Shown one piece after another: positions 3,639 to 61,166 of a stretch of 61,166 nt of DNA; within the stretch, counting starts at the first letter, position 1, and every line of letters starts with the position of its first letter. The DNA lies in the NCBI GenBank assembly GCA_009619075.1, contig WJOY01000039.1:1-61166 (forward strand), written 5' to 3'. The position numbers and the translations under genes were made by a program. This DNA is from Dehalococcoidia bacterium. Its GTDB lineage: Bacteria; Chloroflexota; Dehalococcoidia; GIF9; AB-539-J10. Under the pieces are notes generated by a model that was not told the DNA's origin, did not search any database, and saw only the letters and a list, made by a program, of their open reading frames with translations.

Positions 3639-3730
3639 AGTGATTCTCCTTTGTCTCCTAACGGTGTCTAACATTTTACGTGTTTACGAGGTGCTGAAGA
3701 CATTTGGGTAAGCGAACCGCAAACACGCTG

Positions 3731-4447
3731 TTATGTGCAGTCAAAATGATCATCGCATTTGTATGGCTTGTATCTATTTTCTTTTGCATAATCATTTATG
3801 ACTTTCCAAGTTTTATTTATTAACTCACCAGTTTTCGCCATGATAAAAAAGGCAACTATGTTATCCGACAGGCATATAGGACCTCTTGTATTCATGCCTC
3901 TGCGAACCTTTTGTCCAATCTGCGCAAAGTAACTCTCTCGTTTTACTCTTGGGATATACTGATAGCCCAAAATTAGTGAGTTAGAGTCCATGCGAGTGTA
4001 TAAAGCACTTAACTCACTATACTTCAAGTACTTATGACCATTTCCACTTCGCATACTCTTAACTTCAAATCCATTGTCTGGGTCGATTACTACTACCGAT
4101 CTATTAAGGATAGAAGAGTCAATGCTATCAAAATATTGTTCCCTTCCTGCATTTGAAAAATATTCATCCTCTTTATAGGGGTGGTATTCTATATTTTTGC
4201 TTGACATGAAAGAGCGAAGATTCTTTATATTCCTATTTGATTCCTTTATGCAGCCCTTTAGAAAATTGTCTAACTCTCTTCGTCTGCTTCCATCATAGTC
4301 GGTCCGACTGCCGTGACCAGAGGGATCATGTTCTGTGAGCATTGGAATAAAAGTAAAGCACTTTAAGTTGTCTATTTTCTCAATTAAAGTAAGAACCAAG
4401 TCATACTTAAGAAAATCATTTTTATCACCGAAATACTGATTTTTCAT
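3731..4447 (-). CDS. hypothetical protein, AT-rich orphan; RlmJ-like motif layout (GDKNDFLKYDL ... VVIDPDNG)
   Basis: 238-aa ORF, visibly AT-richer than flanks; N-terminal YFGDKNDFLKYDLVL and central VVIDPDNGFE resemble by eye the HAGNxADVLKH and DPPY positions of RlmJ-type enzymes, but the catalytic motif is altered. Confidence 0.55.
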   Translation of the reverse strand: MKNQYFGDKNDFLKYDLVLTLIEKIDNLKCFTFIPMLTEHDPSGHGSRTDYDGSRRRELDNFLKGCIKESNRNIKNLRSFMSSKNIEYHPYKEDEYFSNAGREQYFDSIDSSILNRSVVVIDPDNGFEVKSMRSGNGHKYLKYSELSALYTRMDSNSLILGYQYIPRVKRESYFAQIGQKVRRGMNTRGPICLSDNIVAFFIMAKTGELINKTWKVINDYAKENRYKPYKCDDHFDCT

Positions 4448-4525: not shown

Positions 4526-4614
<89 letters not shown>

Positions 4615-4615
4615 G

Positions 4616-4701
4616 CGGAGAGGGTGGGATTCGAACCCACGAGGCAATTGCTGCCCACCGCTTTTCGAGAGCGGCACCATCAACCACTCGGTCACCTCTC
4701 C
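4616..4701 (-). tRNA. tRNA-Ser(CGA), no encoded CCA
   Basis: Reverse complement GGAGAGGTGACCGAGTGG...CCGCT-CTCGAAA-AGCGG...long variable arm...GGGTTCGAATCCCACCCTCTCCG; anticodon CGA. Confidence 0.9.
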
Positions 4702-7030: not shown

Positions 7031-7195
7031 AAGCTATGGTGTGGTGGTGCAGTAGTAGTAATAGTGAGCCTTCTGGTTATTGCTGGACTAAGGTTACGAC
7101 AGAGGCGCAAGACTTTTATCGTCATCAGTTGGTATGCCGTTGCTCTGACCGGGCTTTATATTTTTGGCGCCATGCTTTATTCATTTCAAACATAG
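7031..7195 (+). pseudogene. remnant of a CaCA antiporter 3' end (duplicate of 5671-5829)
   Basis: Translates ...VVVIVSLLVIAGLRLRQRRKTFIVISWYAVALTGLYIFGAMLYSFQT*, compared with VVVVVMNLLVILGLRLRQRRKTFIVISWYALALIGLYIFGAYALFTSGTSLG* at the end of the intact gene; 29-nt identical core. Confidence 0.65.
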
Positions 7196-7315
7196 GCTTA
7201 CGGTAAGCCCCTGTGGTTGTGTCTCCTGGAGCGATGTTGTGTGAAGTTTTAGCAACACTTTAGGCCATCCAAAAGTGTTGATTAAATCACCTTGGAGTGC
7301 TAAACTGCGTTCGTG

Positions 7316-7387
7316 GCCCCTGTAGCTCAGAGGATAGAGCACTGGCCTCCGGAGCCAGGTGCAAGGGTTCGAGTCCCTTCAGGGGTA
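7316..7387 (+). tRNA. tRNA-Arg(CCG)
   Basis: GCCCCTGTAGCTCAGAGGATAGAGCACTGGC-CTCCGGA-GCCAG...GGGTTCGAGTCCCTTCAGGGGTA. Confidence 0.9.
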
Positions 7388-7416
7388 TATTCTTAACTAA
7401 AGGAGGTGTTTATGAT

Positions 7417-7998
7417 ATGGCGCAACTAAAAAGAGATCCAATTGGGATAAGGTGGCATGGACGGGGCGGTCAAGGAGCAGTGACCGCAAGCAAGATCTTA
7501 GCAGAGGCAGGGAAATCTGAAGATAAGTATTTTTTGGGCTTGCCTGATTATGGAGCAGAGCGTGCCGGAGCTGCTATGCGCTCCTTTACTACGGTGAGCA
7601 CTAAGCCAATAAGGGCTCTTTGTGAGATCGCTGAACCTGATGCAGTAGTGGTGCTCGATTCCACGCTTCTTGATGAAGTTAATGTGGTGGCTGGGCTTAA
7701 GGAGGACGGAGTGCTTGTGATCAATACCACTGAATCTCCGGCTAATATTCGTTCTAAGCTAGGCTATAAGGGGAGAATATATGCTGTTGACGCTACTTCC
7801 ATTTCTATAAAAAACTTAGGTAAAAATATCCCCAACATTCCTATGCTTGGCGCTCTAGCTCGGGCTGTCGAAGTAGTAAGCAAAGAAAATTTGGTTAAAA
7901 TGATTAGGGAATCACTCGGCGGTAAATTTAAAGAAGCAGTTGTTGAGGGAAATGTGAAAGCCTTTGAAAAGGCTTATGAGACGGCTCAAGCGGGCTAA
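7417..7998 (+). CDS. porG: pyruvate/2-oxoacid:ferredoxin oxidoreductase gamma subunit
   Basis: ORF 7297..7998 trimmed to ATG 7417 behind AAGGAGG (7400-7406), because the upstream part overlaps tRNA-Arg; IRWHGRGGQGAVTASKILAEA motif. Confidence 0.85.
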   Translation: MAQLKRDPIGIRWHGRGGQGAVTASKILAEAGKSEDKYFLGLPDYGAERAGAAMRSFTTVSTKPIRALCEIAEPDAVVVLDSTLLDEVNVVAGLKEDGVLVINTTESPANIRSKLGYKGRIYAVDATSISIKNLGKNIPNIPMLGALARAVEVVSKENLVKMIRESLGGKFKEAVVEGNVKAFEKAYETAQAG

Positions 7999-8022
7999 AA
8001 ATCTTTTGGAAGGAGAGTGCAA

Positions 8023-8325
8023 ATGCGGCTAAAGAGTTGGAAAGAATTAGAGACAGGTGTGGTAATTCTCGAACCAGGTAACTCGGTACTGTACCGGACA
8101 GGCACTTGGCGTACTTTTCGTCCAGTAATTGACATGGAGAAGTGTACTCATTGTATGTTTTGCTGGCTTTATTGCCCAGATGGCTCCATTTTAGTTAAAG
8201 ATAGTAAAGTGATAGGGATTGATTATGAACACTGCAAAGGTTGTGGAATTTGTGCCTATGAGTGCCCGAAGAAGGTGATCACCATGATAGAAGAAGTTAA
8301 AGCAAGAACGGAGGAGGCAAAATAA
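8023..8325 (+). CDS. porD: 2-oxoacid:ferredoxin oxidoreductase delta subunit (4Fe-4S ferredoxin-type)
   Basis: CTHCMFCWLYCPD and CKGCGICAYECP cluster motifs; ATG 8023 behind GGAAGGAGAG. Confidence 0.85.
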   Translation: MRLKSWKELETGVVILEPGNSVLYRTGTWRTFRPVIDMEKCTHCMFCWLYCPDGSILVKDSKVIGIDYEHCKGCGICAYECPKKVITMIEEVKARTEEAK

Positions 8326-9530
8326 TGACTGAAGTTATGGTAAGAAAGGCTGAAGTTAAAGCTCTTGAAGGTGATAAGGCAGTTACTGAAGCCATGCGTC
8401 AGATAAATCCTGATATCGTGGCTGCTTATCCTGTTACTCCTCAAACTGAGATTGTTATGGAGTTCAGCCAATTCGTCGCCGAAGGTTTGGTAGATACTGA
8501 GTTCATCCCTGTGGAAAGCGAGTTTGCTGCTATGAGCTCTTGCGTAGGGGCTTCTTGTGCCGGTGCTCGAGCCATGTCAGCTACCTGTGGGCCGGGATTA
8601 GAACTCATGTGGGAAAACCTCTGGGTTGCCTCAGGGCTTCGCTGTCCTATTGTGATGGCAGTGGTTAATAGGTCTCATGCCGCTCCCCTTAATATACTTA
8701 CAGACCAGACCGATATGATGGGATCTCGTGATACAGGCTGGGTTCAAATTTACGCCGAAAACCATCAAGAAGTCTACGATAACTTTATCCAGGCGGTACG
8801 CATAGCAGAGCACCCCGATATTCTCTTGCCAATAATGTCTGGTCACGCTGGCTTTGTTTTAGGGCATACTCTGGGTCGAGTTGAAGTCTTACCCGATGAG
8901 GTGGTAAGGAATTTTGTTGGAGAGTATAAACCCCTTTATTCCCTCTTAGATATAGATCATCCTAAAACTTTTGGAGCTTACGATCACTGGGATTATTTCT
9001 TCGAACACAGACGTCAGGTATTCGAAGCAATAAATAACGCCTTAAGAGTTATCCCTGAGATCGGGCAGGAATATGGCAAAATTAGCGGGAGGTATTACGG
9101 ATTAGTTGAGCCCTACAGGCTTGATGATGCCGATGTGGTGATTATGATCATAGGTTCAGGGGCGGGTGCCTGCCGGGAAGCCGTGGATGAGATGCGAGAA
9201 AAGGGCACAAAGGCAGGGATGCTTAAAGTTCGTTGCTTCCGTCCCTTCCCAGCCGAGGAAGTGGTAAAGGCCCTCAAGGATAAAAAGGCAGTGGCAGTGA
9301 TGGATAGATGCGCCTGCTTTGGTGCCGAGGGAAGTCCTTTATTCACCGAGACCTGCGCAGCCTTCTTCAATCGTGGTCTACGCATGAAGCTCATCGATTA
9401 CTTTTATGGCTTAGGTGGTCGGGACACTGTTCCCTCTGAATTTTGCGACATTTTCCGCGAACTATCTCAAATTGCCGAGACCGGTGAGATTAAGCCGCCG
9501 CTCGTTAGATATCTTGCCGTTAGAGAGTAA
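8325..9530 (+). CDS. porA: 2-oxoacid:ferredoxin oxidoreductase alpha subunit
   Basis: 401 aa; start overlaps porD stop; typical alpha-subunit sequence (AAYPVTPQTEI). Confidence 0.9.
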   Translation: MTEVMVRKAEVKALEGDKAVTEAMRQINPDIVAAYPVTPQTEIVMEFSQFVAEGLVDTEFIPVESEFAAMSSCVGASCAGARAMSATCGPGLELMWENLWVASGLRCPIVMAVVNRSHAAPLNILTDQTDMMGSRDTGWVQIYAENHQEVYDNFIQAVRIAEHPDILLPIMSGHAGFVLGHTLGRVEVLPDEVVRNFVGEYKPLYSLLDIDHPKTFGAYDHWDYFFEHRRQVFEAINNALRVIPEIGQEYGKISGRYYGLVEPYRLDDADVVIMIIGSGAGACREAVDEMREKGTKAGMLKVRCFRPFPAEEVVKALKDKKAVAVMDRCACFGAEGSPLFTETCAAFFNRGLRMKLIDYFYGLGGRDTVPSEFCDIFRELSQIAETGEIKPPLVRYLAVRE

Positions 9531-9539
9531 GGAGGTAAT

Positions 9540-10472
9540 ATGCCAATAAAGTTAAAGGAGATATGTAATCAGGAAGATAAAATAGCGTCGGGGCACAGGG
9601 CCTGTCATGGATGTCCAGAAACCATTATCGTTCGACAGGTATTGCACACAATAACTGCAATGGGTAAGCCAGTAATAGCGGCTTGCCCCACCGGCTGTCT
9701 GGAGGTTTGTACTTCCCCTTATCCTCAGACTGCTTGGCGAGTCCCTTGGATTCATAATGCTTTTGAGAACGCTTCCAGCACATTGGCTGCTGCCTGGTCG
9801 ACTTATAAGCATTTTGTCAAGCTAGGCAAGATGGAAGACCGCGACATCAAATTTGTGATCTTTGGGGGAGATGGAGCTACCTATGATATCGGGCTCCAGT
9901 TTATAAGTGGGGTTATAGAGCGAGGCCAGCATATACTTTATGTTTGTCTTAATAACGAGGCTTATATGAATACTGGGATTCAACGCAGCGGGGCAACCCC
10001 CCTCGGTGCTTGGACTACCACCACCCCGGTGGGAAAGGTCTTGCCGGGCAAGACAGAACATCGTAAAGACATTGTTGGTATGTTTGTTGCTAATGGTATT
10101 CCTTACGCTGCTCAGGCAGCACCACATGCCTGGCGTGACCTAATGACTAAGGTTCAGAAAGCAGTTTCAATTGAGGGTCCCTCCTACATCGATGTAATAG
10201 CACCTTGCCCTCGTGGCTGGCGTTTCCCCATGGATCAGACCATCTATATGTCTCGACTTGCCGTTGATACTTGTATGTGGCCGCTTTATGAAGTTGAGAA
10301 TGGTAAATATAGGATAACCACAAGGCCTCTTGAGAAAAAGCCGGTAATAGAATATTTGAAGGCGCAAGGGAGATTTGGGCATTTACTTCTCCCTGAAAAC
10401 AAGCACATAGCTGATGAACTGCAGAGGAAAGTAGACCAGGATTGGGAGGAATTGCAGAGGCGAGCAAAATGA
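9540..10472 (+). CDS. porB: 2-oxoacid:ferredoxin oxidoreductase beta subunit (TPP-binding)
   Basis: 310 aa; GHRACHGCPE, GGDGATYDIG, NNEAYMNTG motifs. Confidence 0.9.
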   Translation: MPIKLKEICNQEDKIASGHRACHGCPETIIVRQVLHTITAMGKPVIAACPTGCLEVCTSPYPQTAWRVPWIHNAFENASSTLAAAWSTYKHFVKLGKMEDRDIKFVIFGGDGATYDIGLQFISGVIERGQHILYVCLNNEAYMNTGIQRSGATPLGAWTTTTPVGKVLPGKTEHRKDIVGMFVANGIPYAAQAAPHAWRDLMTKVQKAVSIEGPSYIDVIAPCPRGWRFPMDQTIYMSRLAVDTCMWPLYEVENGKYRITTRPLEKKPVIEYLKAQGRFGHLLLPENKHIADELQRKVDQDWEELQRRAK

Positions 10473-15455: not shown

Positions 15456-15936
15456 ATTGCTTCGTTTCACTCGCAATGACACGGAGCAGATTTGCCATTT
15501 CAATAGCGCTCACCGCGGCAAGAAAGCCCTTGTTACCCTCTTTAGCTCCAGCTCTCTGAACAGCTTGTTCCAGAGTATCAGCAGTAATAATGCCCTGTAT
15601 TATTGGCAATCCGGTGTCCAGGCTTATTCTACCGATTCCTCTGTGTACCTCGGAAGCTATATATCCGAAATGCGGTGTGCCACCGCGAATCACGGCACCG
15701 AGGCATATCACAGCGTTATATTTACCACTTTGCGCTAGCCTCTTAGCTATCAGTGGAATTTCAAAACAGCCTGGTGTCCAGGTAACGTCAATATCCTTCT
15801 CATCAACGCCATGGCGTAACAAAGCATCTCTCGCTCCTTCGAGCAACCTATTGGTTATCAACTCGTTAAATCGGGAAACAACTACAGCAAATTTAAGACC
15901 CTTCCCTACTAACATCCCTTCGTAGTGCTTAGCCAT
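15445..15936 (-). CDS. ribH: 6,7-dimethyl-8-ribityllumazine synthase
   Basis: 163 aa; [13 protein letters not shown] and GTPHFGYIA motifs; C-terminal tail [11 protein letters not shown] is repeat-encoded. Confidence 0.9.
15455..15480 (-). repeat. hairpin-repeat unit (ATTGC/GCAAT variant) forming the ribH 3' end
   Basis: Minus strand reads GTCATTGCGAGTGAAACGAAGCAATC. Confidence 0.8.
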
Positions 15937-27350: not shown

Positions 27351-28277
27351 CTATTCTCCTTTAGTTAGATATTCCCCAGTGAAAACTTCTTCCACCGGGC
27401 CGGTGAGCAATACCTCCCCTACCCTATCCCACGATATAGTCAAGGTCCCACCTGGAAGTATTATGTCAACTATATCGCCTACATAATTATGTAGCTGGGC
27501 AGCTACAGCTATGGCACAAGCACCGCTACCACAAGCAAGGGTCTCTCCCACACCTCGCTCCCATACTCTAGCTTCTATCTTCCCCCTACTCAAAACCCTG
27601 GCTATCTCAAAGTTTGTCCTTTGTGGAAACAAGGGATGTCTTTCCACCTTAGGTCCCACCTCGGCTAGAGGAAAATTAACTACTGGCTCAGATACAAAGC
27701 TCACCGCATGGGGATTGCCCATGGATAAGAGGGATACTGATAGCTGATAGCTGTTAGTTGTCAGTTGATAGGTGATTACTGGAGACTGCTTCGCTTCGCT
27801 CGCAACGGCATCTGTGGTGAGGGTGACGGGAATTTGTTCTGGTTGGAATTGGGGCGTGCCCATGCTTACCTCGACTCGGCTCACTTTATTTCCTAACATG
27901 TACGCTTTAGCCTGTCTCATGCCCGATAACGTTTCTATCCTTAAATTTGTTGTACTAACTACGCCCTTTTCAATAGCATACTTGGCAAGACACCTTAATC
28001 CGTTGCCACAGGTCTCAGCCTCGGAACCATCGGGATTAAAGATGCGCATCTTTAAATCGCAATAGCTAGAATTCTGCACCAATATCAAACCATCGGCCCC
28101 TACGCCAAAGTGACGGTCACACATAGTTTGTGCCAGCTTAGCCCAATGAGATTCTTCGCGGAGTTTACTCTGAGCGAGATTCTTCGGTCGCTTCTCTCCC
28201 TCAGAAAGACAGGATGGGGCTCTGTCATCTATCAGAATAAAATCGTTTCCTGTAGCCTGGAATTTGGAGAATTTCAT
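27351..28277 (-). CDS. dapF: diaminopimelate epimerase carrying two in-frame repeat insertions
   Basis: 308 aa; MKFSKFQATGNDFILID, MCDRHFGVGADGLILV, ETCGNGLRC, LACGSGACA; insert peptides CLSEGEKRPKNLAQSKLREES and AVASEAKQSP. Confidence 0.9.
   Translation of the reverse strand: MKFSKFQATGNDFILIDDRAPSCLSEGEKRPKNLAQSKLREESHWAKLAQTMCDRHFGVGADGLILVQNSSYCDLKMRIFNPDGSEAETCGNGLRCLAKYAIEKGVVSTTNLRIETLSGMRQAKAYMLGNKVSRVEVSMGTPQFQPEQIPVTLTTDAVASEAKQSPVITYQLTTNSYQLSVSLLSMGNPHAVSFVSEPVVNFPLAEVGPKVERHPLFPQRTNFEIARVLSRGKIEARVWERGVGETLACGSGACAIAVAAQLHNYVGDIVDIILPGGTLTISWDRVGEVLLTGPVEEVFTGEYLTKGE
27781..27809 (-). repeat. degenerate hairpin-repeat unit inside dapF
   Basis: Minus strand GCCGTTGCGAGCGAAGCGAAGCAGTCTCC. 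Confidence 0.7.
28148..28213 (-). repeat. 66-nt composite repeat inside dapF
   Basis: Minus strand CCTGTCTTTCTGAGGGAGAGAAGCGACCGAAGAATCTCGCTCAGAGTAAACTCCGCGAAGAATCTC. Confidence 0.9.
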
Positions 28278-46896: not shown

Positions 46897-49278
46897 TCTA
46901 TCGAGCATCTGCTTTTGGATTATGTCAACTTCTTCATCAGTTAAAGTATGCTCAGGTGATTGATAAACAATCCTTATAGCGAAGGATTTCTTGCCTTCAG
47001 GTATTTGCTCACCTCGATAAAAGTCAAAGAGCGTGACTTTCTTTACTAGCGGGAAACTTCGGATTACATCCTCCACCTGCTGATAGCTTACTTGCTTATC
47101 TATTACTAAGGCGATGTCTCTAGTTATGCTGGGAAACCGTGGGATAGGCTGATACTGCTTTACTTTAATTGTTTTGCTCAGCAACCTGTCTATATCCATT
47201 TCAATAAGATAAACAGCATCGGAAAGCTCGAAGGCTTGTGCTACCCTGGGATGCAAGTTACCTACAATACCCACCTTGTCACTATCAATGATTATATTAG
47301 CTGCCCTTCTAGGTGATAGGCTTTCATCATCACTGACCCCAAAGGTTGCTTCTAGTCCCAATTGGTTCAAAAGGTTCTCTACTACCCCCTTAGCATCAAA
47401 GAAATTGAGCTTCTCCTTATTACCATGCCAGGACAATTCTGCCTTTGGGCCGCTAAGTGCAGCACAAAGCATTTCCTTTTCTTGTGGCAGCTCATTCCCT
47501 TGTGGCAAGAATATCTTGCCGATTTCAAATAATCTTATGCTCTTTTCCTCAATCCTTTGATTGTGTGCCAAGGTGGTTAGCAAACCAGGACACAAAGTAG
47601 TACGCAAGTATTCTTGCTCCTTAGTCATAGGGTTAGCTATCCTTAGGGGTGGAATCTTTAGCTCAAACTTTGGAGAAAGCTTTTGTAATCTCTCTAAGCT
47701 AGTTAAAGAATAAGTCAGTATTTCTTGAAAACCGCAGCCGGTGAGAATATTTCGTAATCTTTGCTTGAGATTGCTTCGCTGCGCTCGCAATGACAACCTT
47801 GGTTCTTGTTTAGGTAAGGGAGAGCTAAGCCTGGTAACAGGAACCTTGTCATAGCCGATAATGCGAACCACCTCTTCTACCAGATCAGCAGTGCACCTAA
47901 TGTCACTACGCCAATAAGAAGTGACTACCAAGATTTGTGACGCTGAGTCGGCATGCTGACATTCAAAGCCCAAGGATTTTAATACCTTAAAAATCTTAGC
48001 TAGTGGTACCTTCAAGCCTGAAAGTCGCTCCACCTCCTCAGCAGAAAGTAGTATGCCTTTTGGCTCTAGCTTTCCTGGATAAACATCAACTATACCCCTG
48101 GCTGCTTTGCCACCAGCCAGCTCTAGCAGCAATTGAGTAGCCCGCTTCAGCGGCAGCAGTGGTAAGTCAGGATTTAGCCCTTTATCAAAGCGAATTGAAG
48201 CTTCACTCTGTAAATTAAGGCAGCGGCATCCTTGACGAATGATTGCTTGGTTGAAATTTGCCGACTCTAGGAGAATAGAAGTGGTTTTATCTGCAACCTC
48301 GGTATCTGACCCTCCCATAATTCCAGCAATAGCAACAGCCTTTTCTTTGTCAGCAATGACTAAAGTGTCGGGGCTAAGGACACGCTCTATTCCATCAAGG
48401 GTGGTTATAGTTTCGCCATTTTTAGCCCGACGGACAATAATCTGTTTACCTTCAAGCTTATGATAGTCAAAAGCATGGAGAGGCTGCCCATATTCCAGCA
48501 TCACGTAATTGGTAACATCAACCACGTTGTTAATAGGACGCATACCATAGCTACTCAGGCGCTGCTGTAGCCAGCCAGGAGAAGACGTTACCCTAACCCC
48601 CATGATTAAGCTAGCGCAGTACCTAGAACATAAACTTGGGTCAATTATGTCAACCTTGACAAAGGAATCTATCAGAGCCTCTGTTTCTTCATAGCCTAAC
48701 TCGGGCAAATGAAGTGGTTGCTCAGTAAGAGAGGCAATTTCTCTAGCAATGCCAATTATGGATAAGCAATCTGGGCGATTGGGCGTTATATCTAAATCAA
48801 AAATAACATCGCCTAAATAGTCTCTAAGAGGCATACCTAGAGGAGCTTCTGGTGGTAATACCATGATGCCCTCATGACTATCAGAGATCCCCAATTCCTT
48901 TTCAGAGCAAACCATGCCCTCAGAAAGAACGCCACGAATTTCAGCCGGCTTTAGCAAAATAGGTTTCCCAGTATGACCATCTATAAGTTGTGCTCCCACA
49001 GAGGCGAAAGGCACCTTCTGACCGTGGCTAATGTTTGGGGCACCGCAAACTACAGTAATCTGCTGGGGGCCGAGATTAACAGTAGCTAGCTTTAAGCGAT
49101 CAGCATTAGGATGAGGATTTAAAGCTATCACTTTTCCTACTACTATGTTGTTCCAGGTGCTGCCTGTAATCTGTAGGTCTTTGACTTCCACGCCAGCCAT
49201 AGTTAGCTTTCTAGCTAGCTCTTTAGGAGCAAGCTTGATGTCACTATAATCTTTAAGCCATTTAAGCGAAGCTTTCAT
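46861..49278 (-). CDS. pheT: phenylalanine--tRNA ligase beta subunit with an in-frame repeat insertion
   Basis: 805 aa; MKASLKWLKDY N-terminus, B3/4 and B5 regions; insert peptide LSLRAQRSNLKQ. Confidence 0.95.
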   Translation of the reverse strand: MKASLKWLKDYSDIKLAPKELARKLTMAGVEVKDLQITGSTWNNIVVGKVIALNPHPNADRLKLATVNLGPQQITVVCGAPNISHGQKVPFASVGAQLIDGHTGKPILLKPAEIRGVLSEGMVCSEKELGISDSHEGIMVLPPEAPLGMPLRDYLGDVIFDLDITPNRPDCLSIIGIAREIASLTEQPLHLPELGYEETEALIDSFVKVDIIDPSLCSRYCASLIMGVRVTSSPGWLQQRLSSYGMRPINNVVDVTNYVMLEYGQPLHAFDYHKLEGKQIIVRRAKNGETITTLDGIERVLSPDTLVIADKEKAVAIAGIMGGSDTEVADKTTSILLESANFNQAIIRQGCRCLNLQSEASIRFDKGLNPDLPLLPLKRATQLLLELAGGKAARGIVDVYPGKLEPKGILLSAEEVERLSGLKVPLAKIFKVLKSLGFECQHADSASQILVVTSYWRSDIRCTADLVEEVVRIIGYDKVPVTRLSSPLPKQEPRLSLRAQRSNLKQRLRNILTGCGFQEILTYSLTSLERLQKLSPKFELKIPPLRIANPMTKEQEYLRTTLCPGLLTTLAHNQRIEEKSIRLFEIGKIFLPQGNELPQEKEMLCAALSGPKAELSWHGNKEKLNFFDAKGVVENLLNQLGLEATFGVSDDESLSPRRAANIIIDSDKVGIVGNLHPRVAQAFELSDAVYLIEMDIDRLLSKTIKVKQYQPIPRFPSITRDIALVIDKQVSYQQVEDVIRSFPLVKKVTLFDFYRGEQIPEGKKSFAIRIVYQSPEHTLTDEEVDIIQKQMLDRLHQELGATLRS
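47767..47794 (-). repeat. hairpin-repeat unit inside pheT
   Basis: Minus strand GTCATTGCGAGCGCAGCGAAGCAATCTC. Confidence 0.9.
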
Positions 49279-56015: not shown

Positions 56016-56678
56016 ATGTCATTGCGAGCGAAGCGAAGCAATCCCCAGCTTGTAATAAAGCTTCCACCCCCTCAGTTAAAAGGTAAGATGTCGCTGGAAG
56101 AAGCTATAGCTAGCCGTAGATCAGTTCGAAGATATCGCTCAGAATCATTAACACCTTCTCAGTTATCTCAGATTCTCTGGTCAGCTCAGGGTATTACCGG
56201 GGCCGGTAGACTTAGAGCAGCACCCAGCGCTGGAGCTACATATCCTCTGGAAATTTTTGCTTTTATTGGCAAACAAGGTGTCATTGCGAGCGAAGCGAAG
56301 CAACCTAAAGAGGAGCTACAAGCTGGCATTTACCACTACGATGTGGATAGTCATTCACTGGTTTTGCATCAGCCAGGGGACTTAAGGAAAGAGCTAGCTA
56401 GGGCAGCTCTGGATGAGGGATTCATTGCCAATGCCCCACTGGATATCGTTATCTGTGCCCTTTATCCCAGGACCTCCTATAGATATGGCCGGCGCGGGGA
56501 AAGATATGTTCACATGGAAGTAGGGCATGTCGGGGAAAACATCCACCTTCAAGCTGTAGCTCTGGGCTTGGCCACAGTGGAAGTCGGTGCATTTGATGAT
56601 GAGGAAGTAAGGAAAGTTCTAGGAGTGGAAGAACAGATTAAGCCTTTGTACATCATGCCCATTGGCAACCCGCTGTAG
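56016..56678 (+). CDS. SagB-type dehydrogenase / nitroreductase-fold protein with repeat-derived start and internal insertion
   Basis: 220 aa; LPPPQLKGKMSLEEAIASRRSVRRY and PSAGATYPLE motifs; MSLRAKRSNPQ and VIASEAKQP are repeat-encoded. Confidence 0.75.
   Translation: MSLRAKRSNPQLVIKLPPPQLKGKMSLEEAIASRRSVRRYRSESLTPSQLSQILWSAQGITGAGRLRAAPSAGATYPLEIFAFIGKQGVIASEAKQPKEELQAGIYHYDVDSHSLVLHQPGDLRKELARAALDEGFIANAPLDIVICALYPRTSYRYGRRGERYVHMEVGHVGENIHLQAVALGLATVEVGAFDDEEVRKVLGVEEQIKPLYIMPIGNPL
56018..56043 (+). repeat. hairpin-repeat unit supplying the 5' end of the SagB-like ORF
   Basis: (AT)GTCATTGCGAGCGAAGCGAAGCAATC. Confidence 0.9.
56280..56304 (+). repeat. hairpin-repeat unit inside the SagB-like ORF (different frame from the first copy)
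   Basis: GTCATTGCGAGCGAAGCGAAGCAAC. Confidence 0.9.
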
Positions 56679-56871
56679 GGAGTAAAATCGCTCGTTCTCC
56701 ATTCAGTTTTGCCTCATAGCCTGGCTGTCTTTACCACTGCTGCTATTTAATGCTTTGCTGGTGACCTATGCATCGTATTCCGCAATGCCCTTGCCAAACT
56801 AGTAGCTAAATAGGCACAGGCACTGAGGCGGAAAGTTTCTTGCACTCCCTAAATTTCTAATAACAGATTTC

Positions 56872-56943
56872 GTCTAACGGCTTGCGAAGCCGCCGCAGGC
56901 GGTTTGGGCGAAGTGTAGCGCATCCTGATATGCTCTGTTAGGC
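56872..56943 (-). mobile_element. attC-like site 1 (degenerate)
   Basis: Plus strand GTCTAAC GGCTTGCGAAGCC...TAGCGCATCC...CTCT GTTAGGC; shares CTAACGGCT, GCGAAGCC and TAGC(C)GCAT blocks with site 2 but lacks the long L stem. Confidence 0.35.
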
Positions 56944-56992
56944 GCTGTGCACTTTTTTATAATAAAAATCATTAAGAACCTTTTTTTATATT

Positions 56993-57876
56993 TTATCTTT
57001 TTACCTCAGCCAGAGCTATTCGCTCAATTTCAAATACTTTTAAATCAAGGTTTACCAATTTCATATAACGTTCCTGAACCTCCTCTGATCCAATATCTTC
57101 AATAAGAGAAAGGGAATATTTTGAAAGATAATCACCTATATCAGTCGGGTCCAAGCCATAAATCCAGAGGGGATTATTTTTTTACGCATATGTTTATACA
57201 TGACTTTTATACCATCATGGATGTTTTTACCCTCAATAAAACTCTTTAGAATGTAGGTAAAGACAATTTTACTACCAGGAGCAGCCTGCGCTACATATTT
57301 CATAATACTATCATTAGCTTCTTTTGAAATATATTGTGTAACTCCTTCCCAGATAAAAAGAGTCTTAGAGGTTAAATTGTATCCTGCTTTTTTTAATTCA
57401 GTATCAAGACTTTGCTTCTCAAAATCAATAGGAACAAAAATAACGTGATTTGGAAGCTTTCCTAATATTTTCCCCATTTTTGCTTTTTTCGTTTTTATTA
57501 CTGATGGATGGTCCACTTCAAAGTAACTTATGCTTTCTATACTTGGAATATAATAAGCACGGCAGTCCATTCCAGCACCTAGGTTGACTACTGTTTCAAT
57601 TTCCTTTTTTGTAATACTATTTTTTAATACATCATCTATATAACGAAAGCGGCAAAACATCCAACCCATCGACCCAGGAGAACTTTTTTCCTTCGATTTC
57701 ATAATGGAATCAAGTATTTTAGGTGAACGCATGAGAAATATAAAAAATTTGTAAAAAGGTGTTAATAATTTTTCAGAATATGGATCTTCAAAAAGTCGCT
57801 TTTCTTTCGGATATAACATTCCTGTAGCTCTCGCCCAAGAAACACCGAAACCTGTTTTGATTGCTTTCATAATCAC
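56993..57876 (-). pseudogene. class I SAM-dependent (LCMT/TIGR00027-like) methyltransferase, frameshifted in an A7 run
   Basis: ORF 57136..57876 (VVNLGAGMDCR, FIWEGVTQY) ends soon after the A7 run (57177-57183). One extra A restores NPLWIYGLDPTDIGDYLSKYSLSLIEDIG...ERIALAEVKR* ending at 56993. The 884-nt span is not a multiple of 3. Confidence 0.6.
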
Positions 57877-57905
57877 TCCTCAACTAATTTAAATATTTGC
57901 ATTGC

Positions 57906-57993
57906 GCCTAACGGCTGGGGGATATGCGAAGCCCTGACCGAAGGGAGGGGTTTTAGTGGAGCGATAGCGTAGCCGCATATCCACCTGTTATAT
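57906..57993 (-). mobile_element. attC-like site 2
   Basis: Plus strand GCCTAAC GGCT GGGGGATATGCG ...45 nt... CGCATATCCACC T GTTATAT; 11 of 12 pairing in the inner stem. Confidence 0.5.
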
Positions 57994-58055
57994 GACCGAG
58001 CCGAAGGCGAGGCAAGGAGCGAAGCGACGCAGAGTTCCGAACCCAACCATTTATG

Positions 58056-58532
58056 TTATTTCTTACTTCTAATTCCATATTTCTCTCTAAGGGTTTGTTC
58101 CCAACCAAAGATTTTTAGAAGAAATTTTTCATGTTCTTTAAACTCTTCCATCAATTTATCATCCAACTTTACTCTCTCAAGTGTAACTGGATTGTAAATA
58201 ACAATTTCATTTTCATCACTCATCTTCTCATCTAATTCCCAATGTGCTACTGCATTTCTCAATCGTTGAACAAATCTTAAAGAGTTTTTTACTTTTGGGT
58301 ATTGTTTTAATTTTTTAAAATATGGGATTTGCTCGTAGAGTGAAATCTTTTTATCAAAACTAAAATGGGATGTGTTTATAATGTACCAATAGAAAATTGA
58401 GGCTTGCCTATTAGTTTTAGGAAAAAAATATGTCCTTAGCCTCCAACCAAGAGCTCCTTCTATTACGGTTGCATCTGAAATTATATTCCCCCTAAACCAA
58501 CTTAACTTTTCCCTGATGATTTTTTTATCCAT
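58056..58532 (-). CDS. cassette ORF, possible HEPN-domain protein
   Basis: 158 aa; LRFVQRLRNAVAHWE contains an Rx4H (RNxxxH) motif, as in HEPN / Abi2-type proteins. Confidence 0.45.
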   Translation of the reverse strand: MDKKIIREKLSWFRGNIISDATVIEGALGWRLRTYFFPKTNRQASIFYWYIINTSHFSFDKKISLYEQIPYFKKLKQYPKVKNSLRFVQRLRNAVAHWELDEKMSDENEIVIYNPVTLERVKLDDKLMEEFKEHEKFLLKIFGWEQTLREKYGIRSKK

Positions 58533-58582
58533 AATTAAATACCTATACTCAATAGTCTTGTCTTATAATTTTTCGGAATTTC

Positions 58583-58664
58583 ATATAACGTTTCGCGAGT
58601 ACCCGAAGTTGGCGACCATTGGGAGCAATTTGGGCGGAGCGAAGCCGGATACTCGCTGTTATGT
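58583..58664 (-). mobile_element. attC-like site 3
   Basis: Plus strand ATATAAC GTTTC GCGAGTACCCG ...40 nt... CGGATACTCGC T GTTATGT; outer 7-mers pair 6 of 7 plus a wobble, inner stem 10 of 11. Confidence 0.5.
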
Positions 58665-58745
58665 GCTGAGTAGAGCGCACTTTTATAATAAATTCCCTGC
58701 CCTCCACTTCCCCCGGAGTCATGGATGGCATAGGCGAGAATTGTA

Positions 58746-59789
58746 TTATATTTTTACAGCTTCGACTAAACCTCCAAATGGCTTTTCTTTTTCTGTTGTC
58801 TTTCCCATCAATCTAAACTCTCCTAAAGCTAAGCCGGCTTCTTTTAAAAGGGTTTCAACATTCTCTTTAGGATTCTTAGTTGTATCAATTCCAAATTTCC
58901 AAATTTCGCCACTCATCTTTAAAAGGGGTTTTCCATAATATTTCATAATAAAGGAACCTTCTCCGGTTCCTGCTACAACTGACCTTGAATATAAATCAAA
59001 GGTAATAACACTGCCCTTTGCGCTTGATTTTGCGACTGCTTTTAGAGTCTGGTTCACACTTTCTTCTTCCAGGTAAGGAGTTACTCCCTCCCAGAGAAAG
59101 AATGCCTTTTTAGAAGTGTCAAAGCCATAATCGATCAGCTTATCCACCCATGATTCCTGATTGAAATCTATTGGAACAAAAGTGATCCATTCATAATCAA
59201 TTCCCGCTTTTTTAAGAGCTTCAATTTTGCAGTTTTGGGTACTCTCTTTATCCAGTTCAAAGACTTTAATATTTTTTCCTTTACAATACTTGAATGCCCG
59301 TGTGTCAAATCCTGCGCCCATAAAGACAACCTGATCCATACTATTAATGTTTTTTTCCATCATTTTGTCAAAAAATCCTGTTCTGCAGCCAACAAGACTC
59401 ATCAATGATGCTTTTTCAGGTTCAGGTAATCTGGCTAAACCTGGTAAATATCCACAGATTCGATTTGCAATAAAAGCAGGCCCCATCATCAACCATAATC
59501 CAGCTCCTGACATAAAGGGTAATGAAGAGATCAGCTTTACAGTAGCTTCATCCCTGCGTAATCCAAATATATGTAAAAACCAACGAGAAGATAAAGGGTT
59601 TGTGGCTGTAGCTGATACACCATGTTTTTTGGTATAAATCATGGCTTTTACAACTATGAAAATATATCCGAATATTGTTAAAGGCAAGAGAGGTAATTGA
59701 ATGATTAAAAAAACTATGAACTGAAAAGGTTTAATAATAAATCGTAATGCTACCGGTAATTCTTTTTTTGAAGAGTAATTTCTTGGCAT
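58746..59789 (-). CDS. membrane-anchored class I SAM-dependent (LCMT/TIGR00027-like) methyltransferase
   Basis: ORF 58746..59840 trimmed to MPRNYSSKK behind AGGAGG; VVFMGAGFDTR and FFLWEGVTPY motifs; paralogue of the frameshifted cassette gene. Confidence 0.7.
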   Translation of the reverse strand: MPRNYSSKKELPVALRFIIKPFQFIVFLIIQLPLLPLTIFGYIFIVVKAMIYTKKHGVSATATNPLSSRWFLHIFGLRRDEATVKLISSLPFMSGAGLWLMMGPAFIANRICGYLPGLARLPEPEKASLMSLVGCRTGFFDKMMEKNINSMDQVVFMGAGFDTRAFKYCKGKNIKVFELDKESTQNCKIEALKKAGIDYEWITFVPIDFNQESWVDKLIDYGFDTSKKAFFLWEGVTPYLEEESVNQTLKAVAKSSAKGSVITFDLYSRSVVAGTGEGSFIMKYYGKPLLKMSGEIWKFGIDTTKNPKENVETLLKEAGLALGEFRLMGKTTEKEKPFGGLVEAVKI

Positions 59790-59838
59790 ATCTAAACCTC
59801 CTAAGAATAATAACATGTAATTCTGCGCTCTGCCTTGC

Positions 59839-59855
59839 ACATAACTTGTTCATAT
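59839..59855 (-). mobile_element. attI-like simple site
   Basis: Minus strand ATATGAAC AA GTTATGT, immediately upstream of the first cassette ORF; compare the AACAAAGTTAGGC end of attI1. Confidence 0.35.
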
Positions 59856-59860
59856 CTGCA

Positions 59861-59904
59861 GTACTTCGTCTATATCACTAATTTTGGAGTATATACGAAG
59901 TAAT
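59861..59904. repeat. lox-like inverted repeat (14-15-nt arms, 15-nt spacer)
   Basis: GTACTTCGTCTATAT cactaattttggagt ATATACGAAGTAAT; the right arm reverse complement ATTACTTCGTATA matches the loxP arm ATAACTTCGTATA at 12 of 13 positions. Confidence 0.6.
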
Positions 59905-59956
59905 TGGGCTATGTTTCCTTTGGGCGTTTCGTTTGGTTTTCTGAAATTGCACACCT

Positions 59957-60770
59957 TCATTTCTTCGATCCATTTGCTTGGATGGGTAGGGTATCTAACG
60001 GGCTTTTTATCTTAGTTAAATCTCTGTTACTAACATGAGTATAGATTTCGGCCGTCTTGCTACTGCCATGTCCCAACAACTCTTGGATATACCTTAAATC
60101 CACTCCATTCTCCAAAAGATGGGTGGCAAAGCTATGTCTTAAAGAGTGAATAGTTACATCCTTTTGAATTCCAGTGGTCTCACAAGCATGCTCGAATACA
60201 GCTTGCGCTGTCCTTATAGTTATATGCCTTCCTGGATTAGCCCCTGGAAACAGCCAATTATCTGGCTTATATTCTTTCAAATACCTTCGTATCAAAACAA
60301 CAGGCAGTTTCTTGTCTTTCTTAGGCCTTTTTATCTCATACACAAAGTTCCGTTTCAAGATTTCCCCATAATAGAACTTCAAGGCATTGATAATAATGTT
60401 CAAACTCGATGTGGATGCTTGCTTTTGTTCAGCAAGGTAAACCAGATAATCTCTTGTGTCTTTCTGAGTGATTTCCCTGGGCATCTTGCTTGAAAACCCT
60501 AGGAAATCCTTGTTGTAATGGATGTAAGGCTTTACCGTCTTTGGGCTGTATTTTCTTGCAACCAATTCCTCGCTTGTTCGAAGAGTGGGATCGATTTCGC
60601 TTCTTTCCCCATCAAAAACAGATAATATTTTCTCTAAAATACCATCGCTGGATGGAAAGCTCCAATACTTCTCTTCAGGGTGCCATCGGTATCCATTGAT
60701 AGTCTTTATTTTGGCAATATAAGACGAATTATAGGAGAAGGTAACTTTTATCCTGTCATCAAAAGTCTTG
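59957..60770 (-). pseudogene. tyrosine recombinase remnant: no start codon, internal deletion removing box I
   Basis: The frame is open from a TAA at ~60771 ([44 protein letters not shown]...) without an ATG. KKLPVVL joins directly to [30 protein letters not shown] and IYTHV are present, but the Arg-I/TGxRxSE and KGxKxR segments are absent. Confidence 0.55.
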
Positions 60771-60876
60771 CTGATTCTTGCTGATTCTTATTGATGCCTT
60801 CATCGATTCACCTGATTTACCCAATACTTTTCGGTAGTACCTAGTTTGCAGCAGCTATGACTGCGATTAGATTTAA

Positions 60877-61166
60877 TCAGCTTTTTGCCTTTCCTGCCTG
60901 CTTTACTAGCCAGTATTCTATGCTATCCGCCAAAGCGAGCCAGCTGGCTTCAATGATATTAGTTGAACTGCCTACAGTTCTCCAGTGCTCTCTGCCGTCG
61001 CTGGATTCAAGCAGCACTCGCACTTGAGAGGCAGTGCCAGCGGTTTCTTCAAGAATGCGCACTTTGTAGTCAGTGAGCTCTACAGCAGTCAAGTCAGGAT
61101 AGAATTGAATCAAAGCTTTGCGTAAAGCCTGGTCAAGTGCATTAACCGGTCCATTACCTTCGGCAG
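60877..61166 (-). CDS. C-terminal (LeuA-dimer regulatory domain) part of a citramalate / 2-isopropylmalate synthase; 5' end beyond right window edge
   Basis: The frame is open to the window edge; ...[74 protein letters not shown]. Confidence 0.8.

Follow-up and report, generated by a model that had tools for sequence, protein, structure and literature searches.

A probable integron-like cassette platform with a non-IntI-type recombinase and non-canonical hairpin sites in a Dehalococcoidia genome

We analyzed a 61,166-nucleotide stretch of DNA from a Dehalococcoidia bacterium (contig WJOY01000039.1 of assembly GCA_009619075.1; the whole stretch is called the window here), close to the end of which a degraded tyrosine recombinase gene is followed by a row of genes that each end in a hairpin-like site. 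A previous sequence-only reading had taken this region for a decayed integron, and every sequence feature that it described was found where it had been placed, including the drop in GC content (0.29-0.39 across the AT-rich region 56872-60803 versus 0.45-0.51 in the flanks). All long open reading frames (ORFs) of this island lie on the minus strand, in the order recombinase remnant, LCM methyltransferase, gene of a 158-aa protein and second LCM methyltransferase (Table 1). The window itself is bacterial, as it encodes PheT, ProS and ThrS of bacterial type plus RseP. A search of the whole window with Rfam at gathering thresholds returned tRNAs only.

Table 1. Features of the window, with the positions of related cassette starts on other contigs
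Feature	Coordinates	Strand	Remarks
Tyrosine-recombinase pseudogene, IntI/XerA-like family	59957..60803	-	three lesions
Coding region of the N-terminal HARP-like domain	60575..60772	-	absent from IntI1 and XerA
attI-like site	59842..59956	-	between recombinase stop codon and first cassette
Cassette A: LCM/TIGR00027-family S-adenosylmethionine methyltransferase plus site S3	58589..59844	-	ORF 58746-59840
Site S3 (attC-like)	58583-58664; feature 58580..58668	-	ACATAAC...GTTATAT
Cassette B: 158-aa HEPN-like protein plus site S2	57912..58588	-	ORF 58056-58532
Site S2 (attC-like)	57906-57993; feature 57903..57997	-	ATATAAC...GTTAGGC
Cassette C: second LCM/TIGR00027 methyltransferase plus defective site S1	56878..57911	-	ORFs 57136-57876, 56993-57154
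Site S1, last of array	56872-56943; feature 56869..56947	-	GCCTAAC...GTTAGAC
Conserved cassette starts after GTTA	window 57888-57911; L002 923-946; L003 1199-1228; L004 3290-3310, 4010-4030		
Solo cassette: 238-aa protein plus attC-like site	3663..4447	-	ORF 3731-4447, site 3663-3740
Nitroreductase gene	56016-56678	+	flank of island
LeuA/CimA-type gene, 3' end	60877-61166	-	other flank; LeuA_dimer 1e-20
24-nt dispersed repeat GTCATTGCGAGCGAAGCGAAGCAA	56018-56041, 56280-56303, 47771-47794, 27786-27809, 15457-15480		5 copies, at most 3 mismatches

The tyrosine recombinase remnant, postulated earlier as co-oriented with the cassettes, is indeed present: it matches PF00589 (5e-24) and PF13495 (8e-16), its top NCBIfam match is TIGR02249 (146.7 bits), and the XerA model scores 142 bits. 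Comparison with 92-98% identical copies on two related contigs, L003 (protein P0001) and L090, revealed three lesions: a 10-bp tandem duplication at 60770-60789 puts the gene out of frame after codon 9, eight codons (YFKDLREE) are lost, and an in-frame deletion of 213 nt at 60291/60292 takes out the catalytic Arg-I and Lys.

As for the cargo, the two methyltransferases of the array are 31% identical and both exceed the curated cut-offs (146.6 and 118.1 bits versus 22.3 in Pfam; 180.4 and 151.9 versus 93.55 in NCBIfam). The protein of cassette A (Pfam LCM 5.5e-34, TIGR00027 2e-44) has an N-terminal hydrophobic extension, with a likely ATG near 59789 behind GGAGG. That of cassette C (Pfam LCM 1e-42) loses its frame in an A-run near 57170-57185, and the C-terminus resumes in ORF 56993-57154, so the description of two paralogs, one of them frameshifted, holds. 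PADLOC gave no match for either enzyme, and exact-sequence look-ups of the 364-aa methyltransferase and of RtcB gave none. The small protein of cassette B had been called HEPN-like; the Rx4H motif (RNAVAH) is present, but the match to the HEPN profile PF18736 is sub-threshold (17.2 bits, cut-off 26.6, E 0.004). PADLOC reported for it a weak match to the LmuA C-terminus.

On the coding strand, behind each cargo gene stands a GC-rich imperfect palindrome of 72-90 bp bounded by TAAC...GTTA. Site S3 reads ACATAAC-A-GCGAGTATCCG...CGGGTACTCGC-GAAAC-GTTATAT and S2 reads ATATAAC-AG-GTGGATATGCG...CGCATATCCCC-CAGCC-GTTAGGC. The outer 7-mers, the inner stems with one mismatch each (GGGGGATATGCG/CGCATATCCACC and GCGAGTACCCG/CGGATACTCGC) and the CTGTTA common to S1, S2 and S3 agree with the previous description. 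In S1 the R boxes remain and so does the 5' arm of the stem, while the 3' arm is missing (a gap in the L' alignment columns), and the site folds no better than shuffled sequence (z-scores -0.03 and -0.68). S2 and S3 fold better on the bottom strand (z -2.0 and -1.65 versus -0.37 and -0.85). A covariance model, R1, built from seven aligned sites of the window and of contigs L002, L003 and L004, scored S2, S3 and S1 at 80.9, 80.4 and 60.5 bits. It also found the site at 3663-3740, on which it had not been trained (48.7 bits, E 1e-8), and nothing further below E 0.9 over the 61-kb window. The sites of the window are far beyond chance.

Between the stop codon of the recombinase and the first cassette lies an attI-like site that ends with ...GATATGAACAA-GTTA and holds repeated (C)GNATATA motifs; attC-like models gave no match to it. 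The region can be aligned among the window, two contigs of metagenome-assembled genomes (MAGs), L004 (archaeal) and L011 (Altiarchaeum), and the Desulfitobacterium genome L036, AGTTA being invariant at its end.

The sequence-only reading had proposed to look for cassette turnover in relatives, and this comparison was strongly positive. Contig L001 (Logan SRR30888637) has the arrangement of the window at 98.6% identity. On L002 (JGI 3300029811) the gene of the 158-aa protein travels together with S2 (99.4% identity) among different neighbors: upstream there is another palindrome and identity with the window begins at AAC-GTTATATGA, while downstream the sequences diverge just past CAGCC-GTTA. 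In turn, L003 (JGI 3300029812) represents the same chromosomal locus in a near-identical strain (recombinase gene 92-98%, attI 98.7% and nitroreductase flank 95.8% identical), in which one different cassette with its own site replaces the three of the window; it encodes a 272-aa protein matching the PADLOC candidate PDC-S05 (5e-12). When metagenomes were scanned for the final 22 nt of the attI-like site, six further contigs, L088-L093, were returned. The first cassette of L093 is cassette A of the window, and L088, L089, L090, L091 and L092 each carry another one. Together, the window, L003 and L088-L093 thus present seven kinds of first cassette, all of which part directly after ...GATATGAACAAGTTA (GTTA), and the region upstream of the 22-mer is also common to L089-L093, though not to L088. 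This sharing of one attI by differing first cassettes supports the earlier placement of an attI-like site upstream of the first cassette. The junctions of L002, L003 and L088-L093 therefore show that the mobile unit begins with TTA..., contains the gene and extends through the site as far as its G, and that the crossover falls within or at GTTA both at attI and at the sites. Such exchange behavior matches that of integron cassettes.

Several further observations concern individual cassettes. Directly after S2, L002 carries an IS1595-family transposase gene (1007-1576) in cassette position. On L088 (1445-1646) only the last 22 nt of attI are found, preceded by unrelated sequence containing AAGTTATATT and followed by another cassette; this junction may be the product of recombination at a secondary site. 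The first 20-25 nt after GTTA are alike within a lineage despite different genes (GCAATGCAAATATTTAA in the lineage of the window, ACRCAATCGGCTTCGG in L004), and such conserved cassette starts could be an extended recombinase-binding arm or a common expression signal. The solo cassette at the other end of the window encodes a protein without family match, the stop codon of its gene lying inside the R'' box of the site. Two tRNA genes (4529-4701) are located directly upstream of it and an Asp/Glu racemase gene downstream, and the same gene plus its attC-like site are also present on contig L087.

We aligned 64 sites from 26 sources and found a common coding-strand layout of 80-95 bp, i.e., N6-TAAC, a 1-nt spacer (A in 53 of the 64), an 11-bp stem arm, a loop, the complementary arm, a 4-5-nt spacer (typically RRAAC) and GTTA-N6. 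The conserved loop consists of GYT.CGCT..CCCAAAT, a small terminal hairpin and ACTTC. Covariation in the stem is strong: its cells are paired in 93% of cases, versus 71% in shuffles, and compensatory changes occur in 10 of the 11 stem pairs, with slid controls at 25-46%. The six bases after GTTA and the six before the TAAC of the next site are complementary at 4.5 positions on average (35 adjacent pairs), compared with 2.8 within one site and 2.8 for random pairs (Mann-Whitney p = 2e-8 and 5e-12). Each site of an array is thus a hybrid, the partner of its R'' box standing at the other end of its own cassette, as expected if circles are excised and inserted at GTTA. A reading of the plus strand as the top strand, suggested by extra bases on its 5' arm, was rejected, since on L002 the gene moves with the site that follows it on the coding strand. 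Discrete 11-bp stem types (GCGGATAAAAG, GAGCGTATCTG, CGGTGTTTGTG), read from the same alignment (e.g., L011, L020, L023, L039, L013, L010; L043, L079, L077), recur across phyla and both domains, and chimeras of two types were seen at L039:19069, L013:4142, L011:5471, L023:7031 and L004:3209. They suggest that cassettes come from a common pool and that exchange may take place in the loop besides that at GTTA.

The palindromes had been credited with the signature of attC. Their TAAC and GTTA boxes conform to it, but the canonical spacer and bulged bases are missing. Reference sites were nine archaeal attCs plus attCaadA7, as listed by Ghaly et al. (2022; Data S9/S10). The seven that could be aligned consist of TAAC and a 5-nt spacer, then a stem in which two bases bulge, the stem again, a 6-nt spacer and GTTA, whereas the sites described here have a 1-nt and a 4-5-nt spacer and an unbulged 11-bp stem in place of 5- and 6-nt spacers with extrahelical bases. 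A covariance model of these seven (R2, a proxy for the canonical attC) gave no match at E<=10 to S1-S4 or to the solo site on either strand, and only one marginal match in 84 loci. As a control, on plasmid R46 it found the aadA1 attC (56 bits; almost a copy of the aadA7 site used in training) and, outside the training set, the orfD attC (46 bits), the two oxa2 attCs scoring weakly (9-12 bits). R1, in turn, had no match on R46.

To place the locus, one genome per GTDB species was scanned with the recombinase alignment as query, and the best 80 of the 574 confirmed relatives' loci were kept. Among these 80, the bacterial loci belong to Nitrospirota, Atribacteria, Aminicenantes, Nitrospinae, Dehalococcoidia, Spirochaetota, Deferribacteres, Bacillota, Ignavibacteria and Bacteroidota, and the archaeal ones to Altiarchaeota, Micrarchaeota, Methanosarcinales, Methanoperedenaceae, Hydrothermarchaeales and Undinarchaeales. 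The Bacillota loci include the complete chromosome of Desulfitobacterium sp. Sab5 (L036) along with other Bacillota MAGs. R1 matches with E<0.01 number 67, from 25 loci of many phyla: 60 lie downstream of the recombinase gene on its strand, six downstream on the opposite strand (all on L023) and one upstream (binomial p = 2e-34), despite the 503 kb searched upstream versus 335 kb downstream. Where the sequence downstream measures at least 1.5 kb, 24 of 45 loci have such matches, as do 19 of 27 among the 40 closest. With a broader model, R3 (77 matches in 27 loci), the pattern was unchanged. The arrays hold roughly one co-oriented ORF per site; on L011 and L036 most sites follow one ORF and some follow two. 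L004, which is archaeal (NMD3, archaeal-type PheRS), combines the same site family with a recombinase of 59% identity. Two loci deviate in layout. L023 (Dehalococcoidia) has one site behind the recombinase on its strand and six more downstream on the opposite strand (7031-10361), which points to an inverted array segment. On L020 (Atribacteria) about 325 bp separate the recombinase gene from an attC-like site (9591-9676) upstream of it, and the gene may itself be flanked by sites.

We collected at least 8000 homologs of the recombinase. Intact relatives are about 350 aa long, pass the cut-off of the XerA_Arch model (NCBIfam NF040815, 232-245 bits versus 220) and stay below that of the integron-integrase model TIGR02249 (214-227 bits versus 265), their match to the latter being split around model positions 180-234. 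The name of NF040815 is ambiguous ("tyrosine recombinase/integron integrase"), and the attI, the arrays and the extra domain are unlike dif resolution. Relative to IntI1 of R46, with which they share 35-38% identity, they lack 31+10 residues of the IntI-specific domain and possess an N-terminal extension of about 75 aa; relative to VchIntIA, a 26-aa stretch stands where that chain has 68 aa. Searched against PDB, the family profile matched VchIntIA best (199 bits), with XerA at 189 and 186 bits, and an AlphaFold 2 (AF2) model of the member P0004 (predicted local distance difference test, pLDDT, 84) matched VchIntIA and XerA about equally.

The N-terminal extension resembles a HARP domain (Pfam PF07443, E 6.6e-5 in the window and 1.6e-4 to 4.4e-4 in three relatives). 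Modeled alone (AF2 pLDDT 89), it had as its best Foldseek match the HARP substrate-recognition domain of SMARCAL1 (4o66; probability 0.77, template modeling score 0.55, E 0.3), and the family profile matched 4o66 at E 0.5. HARP domains bind junctions of single- and double-stranded DNA, and in the VchIntIA structure (2a3v) the IntI insertion binds bulged bases of the site. Damage to the recombinase recurs among relatives. L003 and L090 retain an intact catalytic core and share a 1-nt frameshift in the HARP-like domain near codon 30. On L091 the gene is almost wholly deleted (884-1110), so that attI lies about 225 bp from cimA, and P0105 of the archaeal L004 (1680-2609) independently lost the catalytic segment that is deleted in the window. 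Such repeated damage could reflect selection against the active enzyme or the retention of non-catalytic remnants.

Taken together, we consider it likely that the region 56.87-60.80 kb is a chromosomal, integron-like cassette platform which works with a recombinase not of the IntI type and with non-canonical hairpin sites, and which is decaying in this genome. As pictured from the relatives, an intact system would comprise, in one orientation, the gene of the recombinase with the HARP-like domain, the attI-like site directly downstream and an array of single-gene cassettes. By analogy with integrons, the recombinase would excise cassettes as circles, the ends of a cassette pairing into a 10-bp R box, and the circles would be re-inserted at attI. 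The substrate is probably the folded bottom strand, which is favored because TAA|C followed by C plus the 5-nt spacer gives a normal 6-nt central region ahead of the stem there, versus 2 nt between R box and stem on the top strand. The HARP-like domain may supply the recognition of DNA structure for which classical integrons use the IntI insertion and extrahelical bases, and it is a candidate replacement for that insertion; sites without bulged bases and a recombinase without the IntI insertion go together, which makes the picture coherent. Decay at this locus is seen in the three lesions of the recombinase, in S1 lacking one arm and in the frameshifted methyltransferase. As the recombinase of the window is inactivated, further turnover would need a recombinase in trans.

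Of the original interpretation as a decayed integron, the cassette array, the attI-like site and the decay stand, while the assignment to classical integrons (IntI, attI and attC in the sense of IntegronFinder / Messier & Roy) does not. The locus is not a classical integron, because the relatives of its recombinase lack the IntI insertion and fail TIGR02249, and because its sites lack the canonical spacer and bulges. That it nevertheless descends from a true IntI of the inverted-orientation group acting on ordinary attC sites is unlikely in our view, even though the TAAC/GTTA R boxes, the GTTA crossover, the attI beside the recombinase and the typical cargo would all fit, as would TIGR02249 as top NCBIfam match of the remnant, VchIntIA as best PDB match of the family and the co-oriented IntI genes reported in Treponema (PMC4889954). 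The insertion is missing, and the score below the TIGR02249 cut-off, not only in a 92%-identical copy but also in five other intact relatives; the sites have neither the 5-nt 5' spacer nor the bulged bases; and R2 misses these sites yet finds R46 attCs, R1 finding no canonical attC in R46. Membership in the "inverted integron-integrase" group, with whose layout the locus had been compared, is likewise not supported.

Quite unlikely, too, is a CALIN-type array without its own integrase that is served by an unrelated enzyme encoded elsewhere, the neighboring recombinase gene being there by coincidence, as a gene of Xer type or of a mobile element. First cassettes at this locus differ although no copy of its recombinase gene is undamaged, and intact relatives pass the XerA model, both as this explanation would have it. 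Yet chance neighborhood fits poorly with 60 of 67 sites being downstream and co-oriented over 25 loci of many phyla, with an attI-like sequence that is conserved at the stop codon of bacterial and archaeal recombinase genes, and with R2 detecting no canonical attC in 84 loci beyond its one marginal match. As for transcription terminators or repetitive extragenic palindrome (REP)-like repeats in an ordinary horizontally acquired block, GC-rich hairpins directly after stop codons in an AT-rich island might be so explained, but none is terminator-like on the coding strand, no T-run follows, and there is no enrichment. GTTA marks the cassette boundaries exactly, the flanks pair across cassettes, and the site sequence is conserved across domains; the junction data in practice refute this explanation, which we regard as extremely improbable.

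Some results weigh against an integron-like platform of the kind preferred here. Of the 45 loci whose downstream sequence reaches at least 1.5 kb, 21 showed no site, mostly those with more distant recombinases, and all copies of the recombinase at the locus itself (window, L003, L090, L091) are damaged, so that turnover here may depend on another copy. The alignment behind the covariation counts was fitted to the model, and stem mismatch types favor neither strand (19 A.C versus 15 G.T). R2 was strong on just two of the four R46 attCs, and thus the real IntegronFinder model might still call the sites of the window. The HARP assignment is sub-threshold by every method (20.2-22.8 bits in four of four members, where Pfam requires 25; Foldseek E 0.3). 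Excision, the circular intermediates and the choice of strand are inferences.

Among known systems, XerA and XerCD share with this recombinase an Xer-like catalytic core without the IntI insertion. CTX phage integrates through XerCD as a single-stranded DNA hairpin, and the pdif modules of Acinetobacter are genes bounded by recombinase sites. Use of a folded single strand would parallel the former, and the cassettes parallel the latter. The differences are the hairpins of about 90 bp instead of 28-bp dif-like cores, the lack of a dif context, the dedicated attI, the ordered arrays in one orientation and the extra HARP-like domain. Classical integrons likewise have a tyrosine recombinase beside attI and mostly single-gene cassettes that end in AAC...GTT imperfect palindromes. 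As in class 1 integrons and the Vibrio superintegron, the crossover lies at GTT, sites are hybrids of adjacent cassettes and the cargo is of accessory or defense type. In contrast to them, the recombinase has an N-terminal HARP-like domain and no IntI-specific domain, and its gene points toward the cassettes rather than away. The sites, too, are distinct, with a 1-nt versus a 4-5-nt spacer, an unbulged 11-bp stem and a CCCAAAT...ACTTC loop, and they are missed by the proxy attC model. Promoter-like sites are not enriched, and the layout of a divergent intI with a Pc promoter was not found.

Co-orientation of recombinase and cassettes is shared with the inverted-orientation integrons of Treponema and others (PMC4889954). 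These, like classical integrons, were found through an IntI-specific profile and canonical attC models (PMC4889954), and the system described here is set apart from them by the recombinase without IntI domain and by sites unmatched by the proxy model. Archaeal integrons (Ghaly et al. 2022, PMC9668308) resemble it in the attI immediately downstream of the integrase gene, in the occurrence in Archaea and in that most arrays apparently lack an integrase (CALINs). Yet for them the IntI-specific domain is reported, with canonical attCs (TAAC-AAnTC-...GAC...; Data S9), and Altiarchaeota and Micrarchaeota, which are carriers here (L007, L011, L032), are missing from their tables. In the supplement of Ghaly et al. 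the CCCAAAT motif occurs in none of the sites, and the archaeal contigs of the present set are all absent from it. Smyshlyaev et al. (PMC8138268) noted that the insertion is "not fully conserved" in a subgroup of integron-like recombinases and did not describe arrays. Among Firmicutes, no complete integron was detected by Cury et al., whereas the present system occurs in Desulfitobacterium and other Bacillota MAGs. The literature searched contains no description of the recombinase or site family, which is not proof of novelty.

Apart from the cassettes, the window contains a 24-nt dispersed repeat, of which five copies were observed versus none expected. Two copies are in frame within the nitroreductase ORF at the edge of the island and one is within the span of the pheT ORF, and the repeat has the look of a small element whose insertion into coding sequence is tolerated.

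Beyond this locus, the chances seem even to us that the family represents a previously unrecognized class of integron-like gene capture, marked by an IntI-related recombinase that lacks the IntI insertion and is fused to a HARP-like domain, which may bind structured DNA, and by the non-canonical hairpin site, and spread over many bacterial phyla, Bacillota included, and several archaeal ones. Its relation to classical integrons could be that of a sister or of a precursor, and it could explain some of the cassette arrays that lack an integrase. Integrons are the model of prokaryotic gene capture and shuffling, and their definition rests on the IntI-specific domain and the canonical attC. If the proposed reading is true, there would be a second molecular solution to cassette capture, with another accessory domain and other unpaired site features, and cassette platforms would extend to lineages thought to be without them. 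Surveys based on current profiles would undercount such arrays. The cassette pool would be common to both domains, the same stem types being found in Altiarchaeota, Atribacteria and Dehalococcoidia, and the origin of integrons from Xer-like recombinases would become directly testable.

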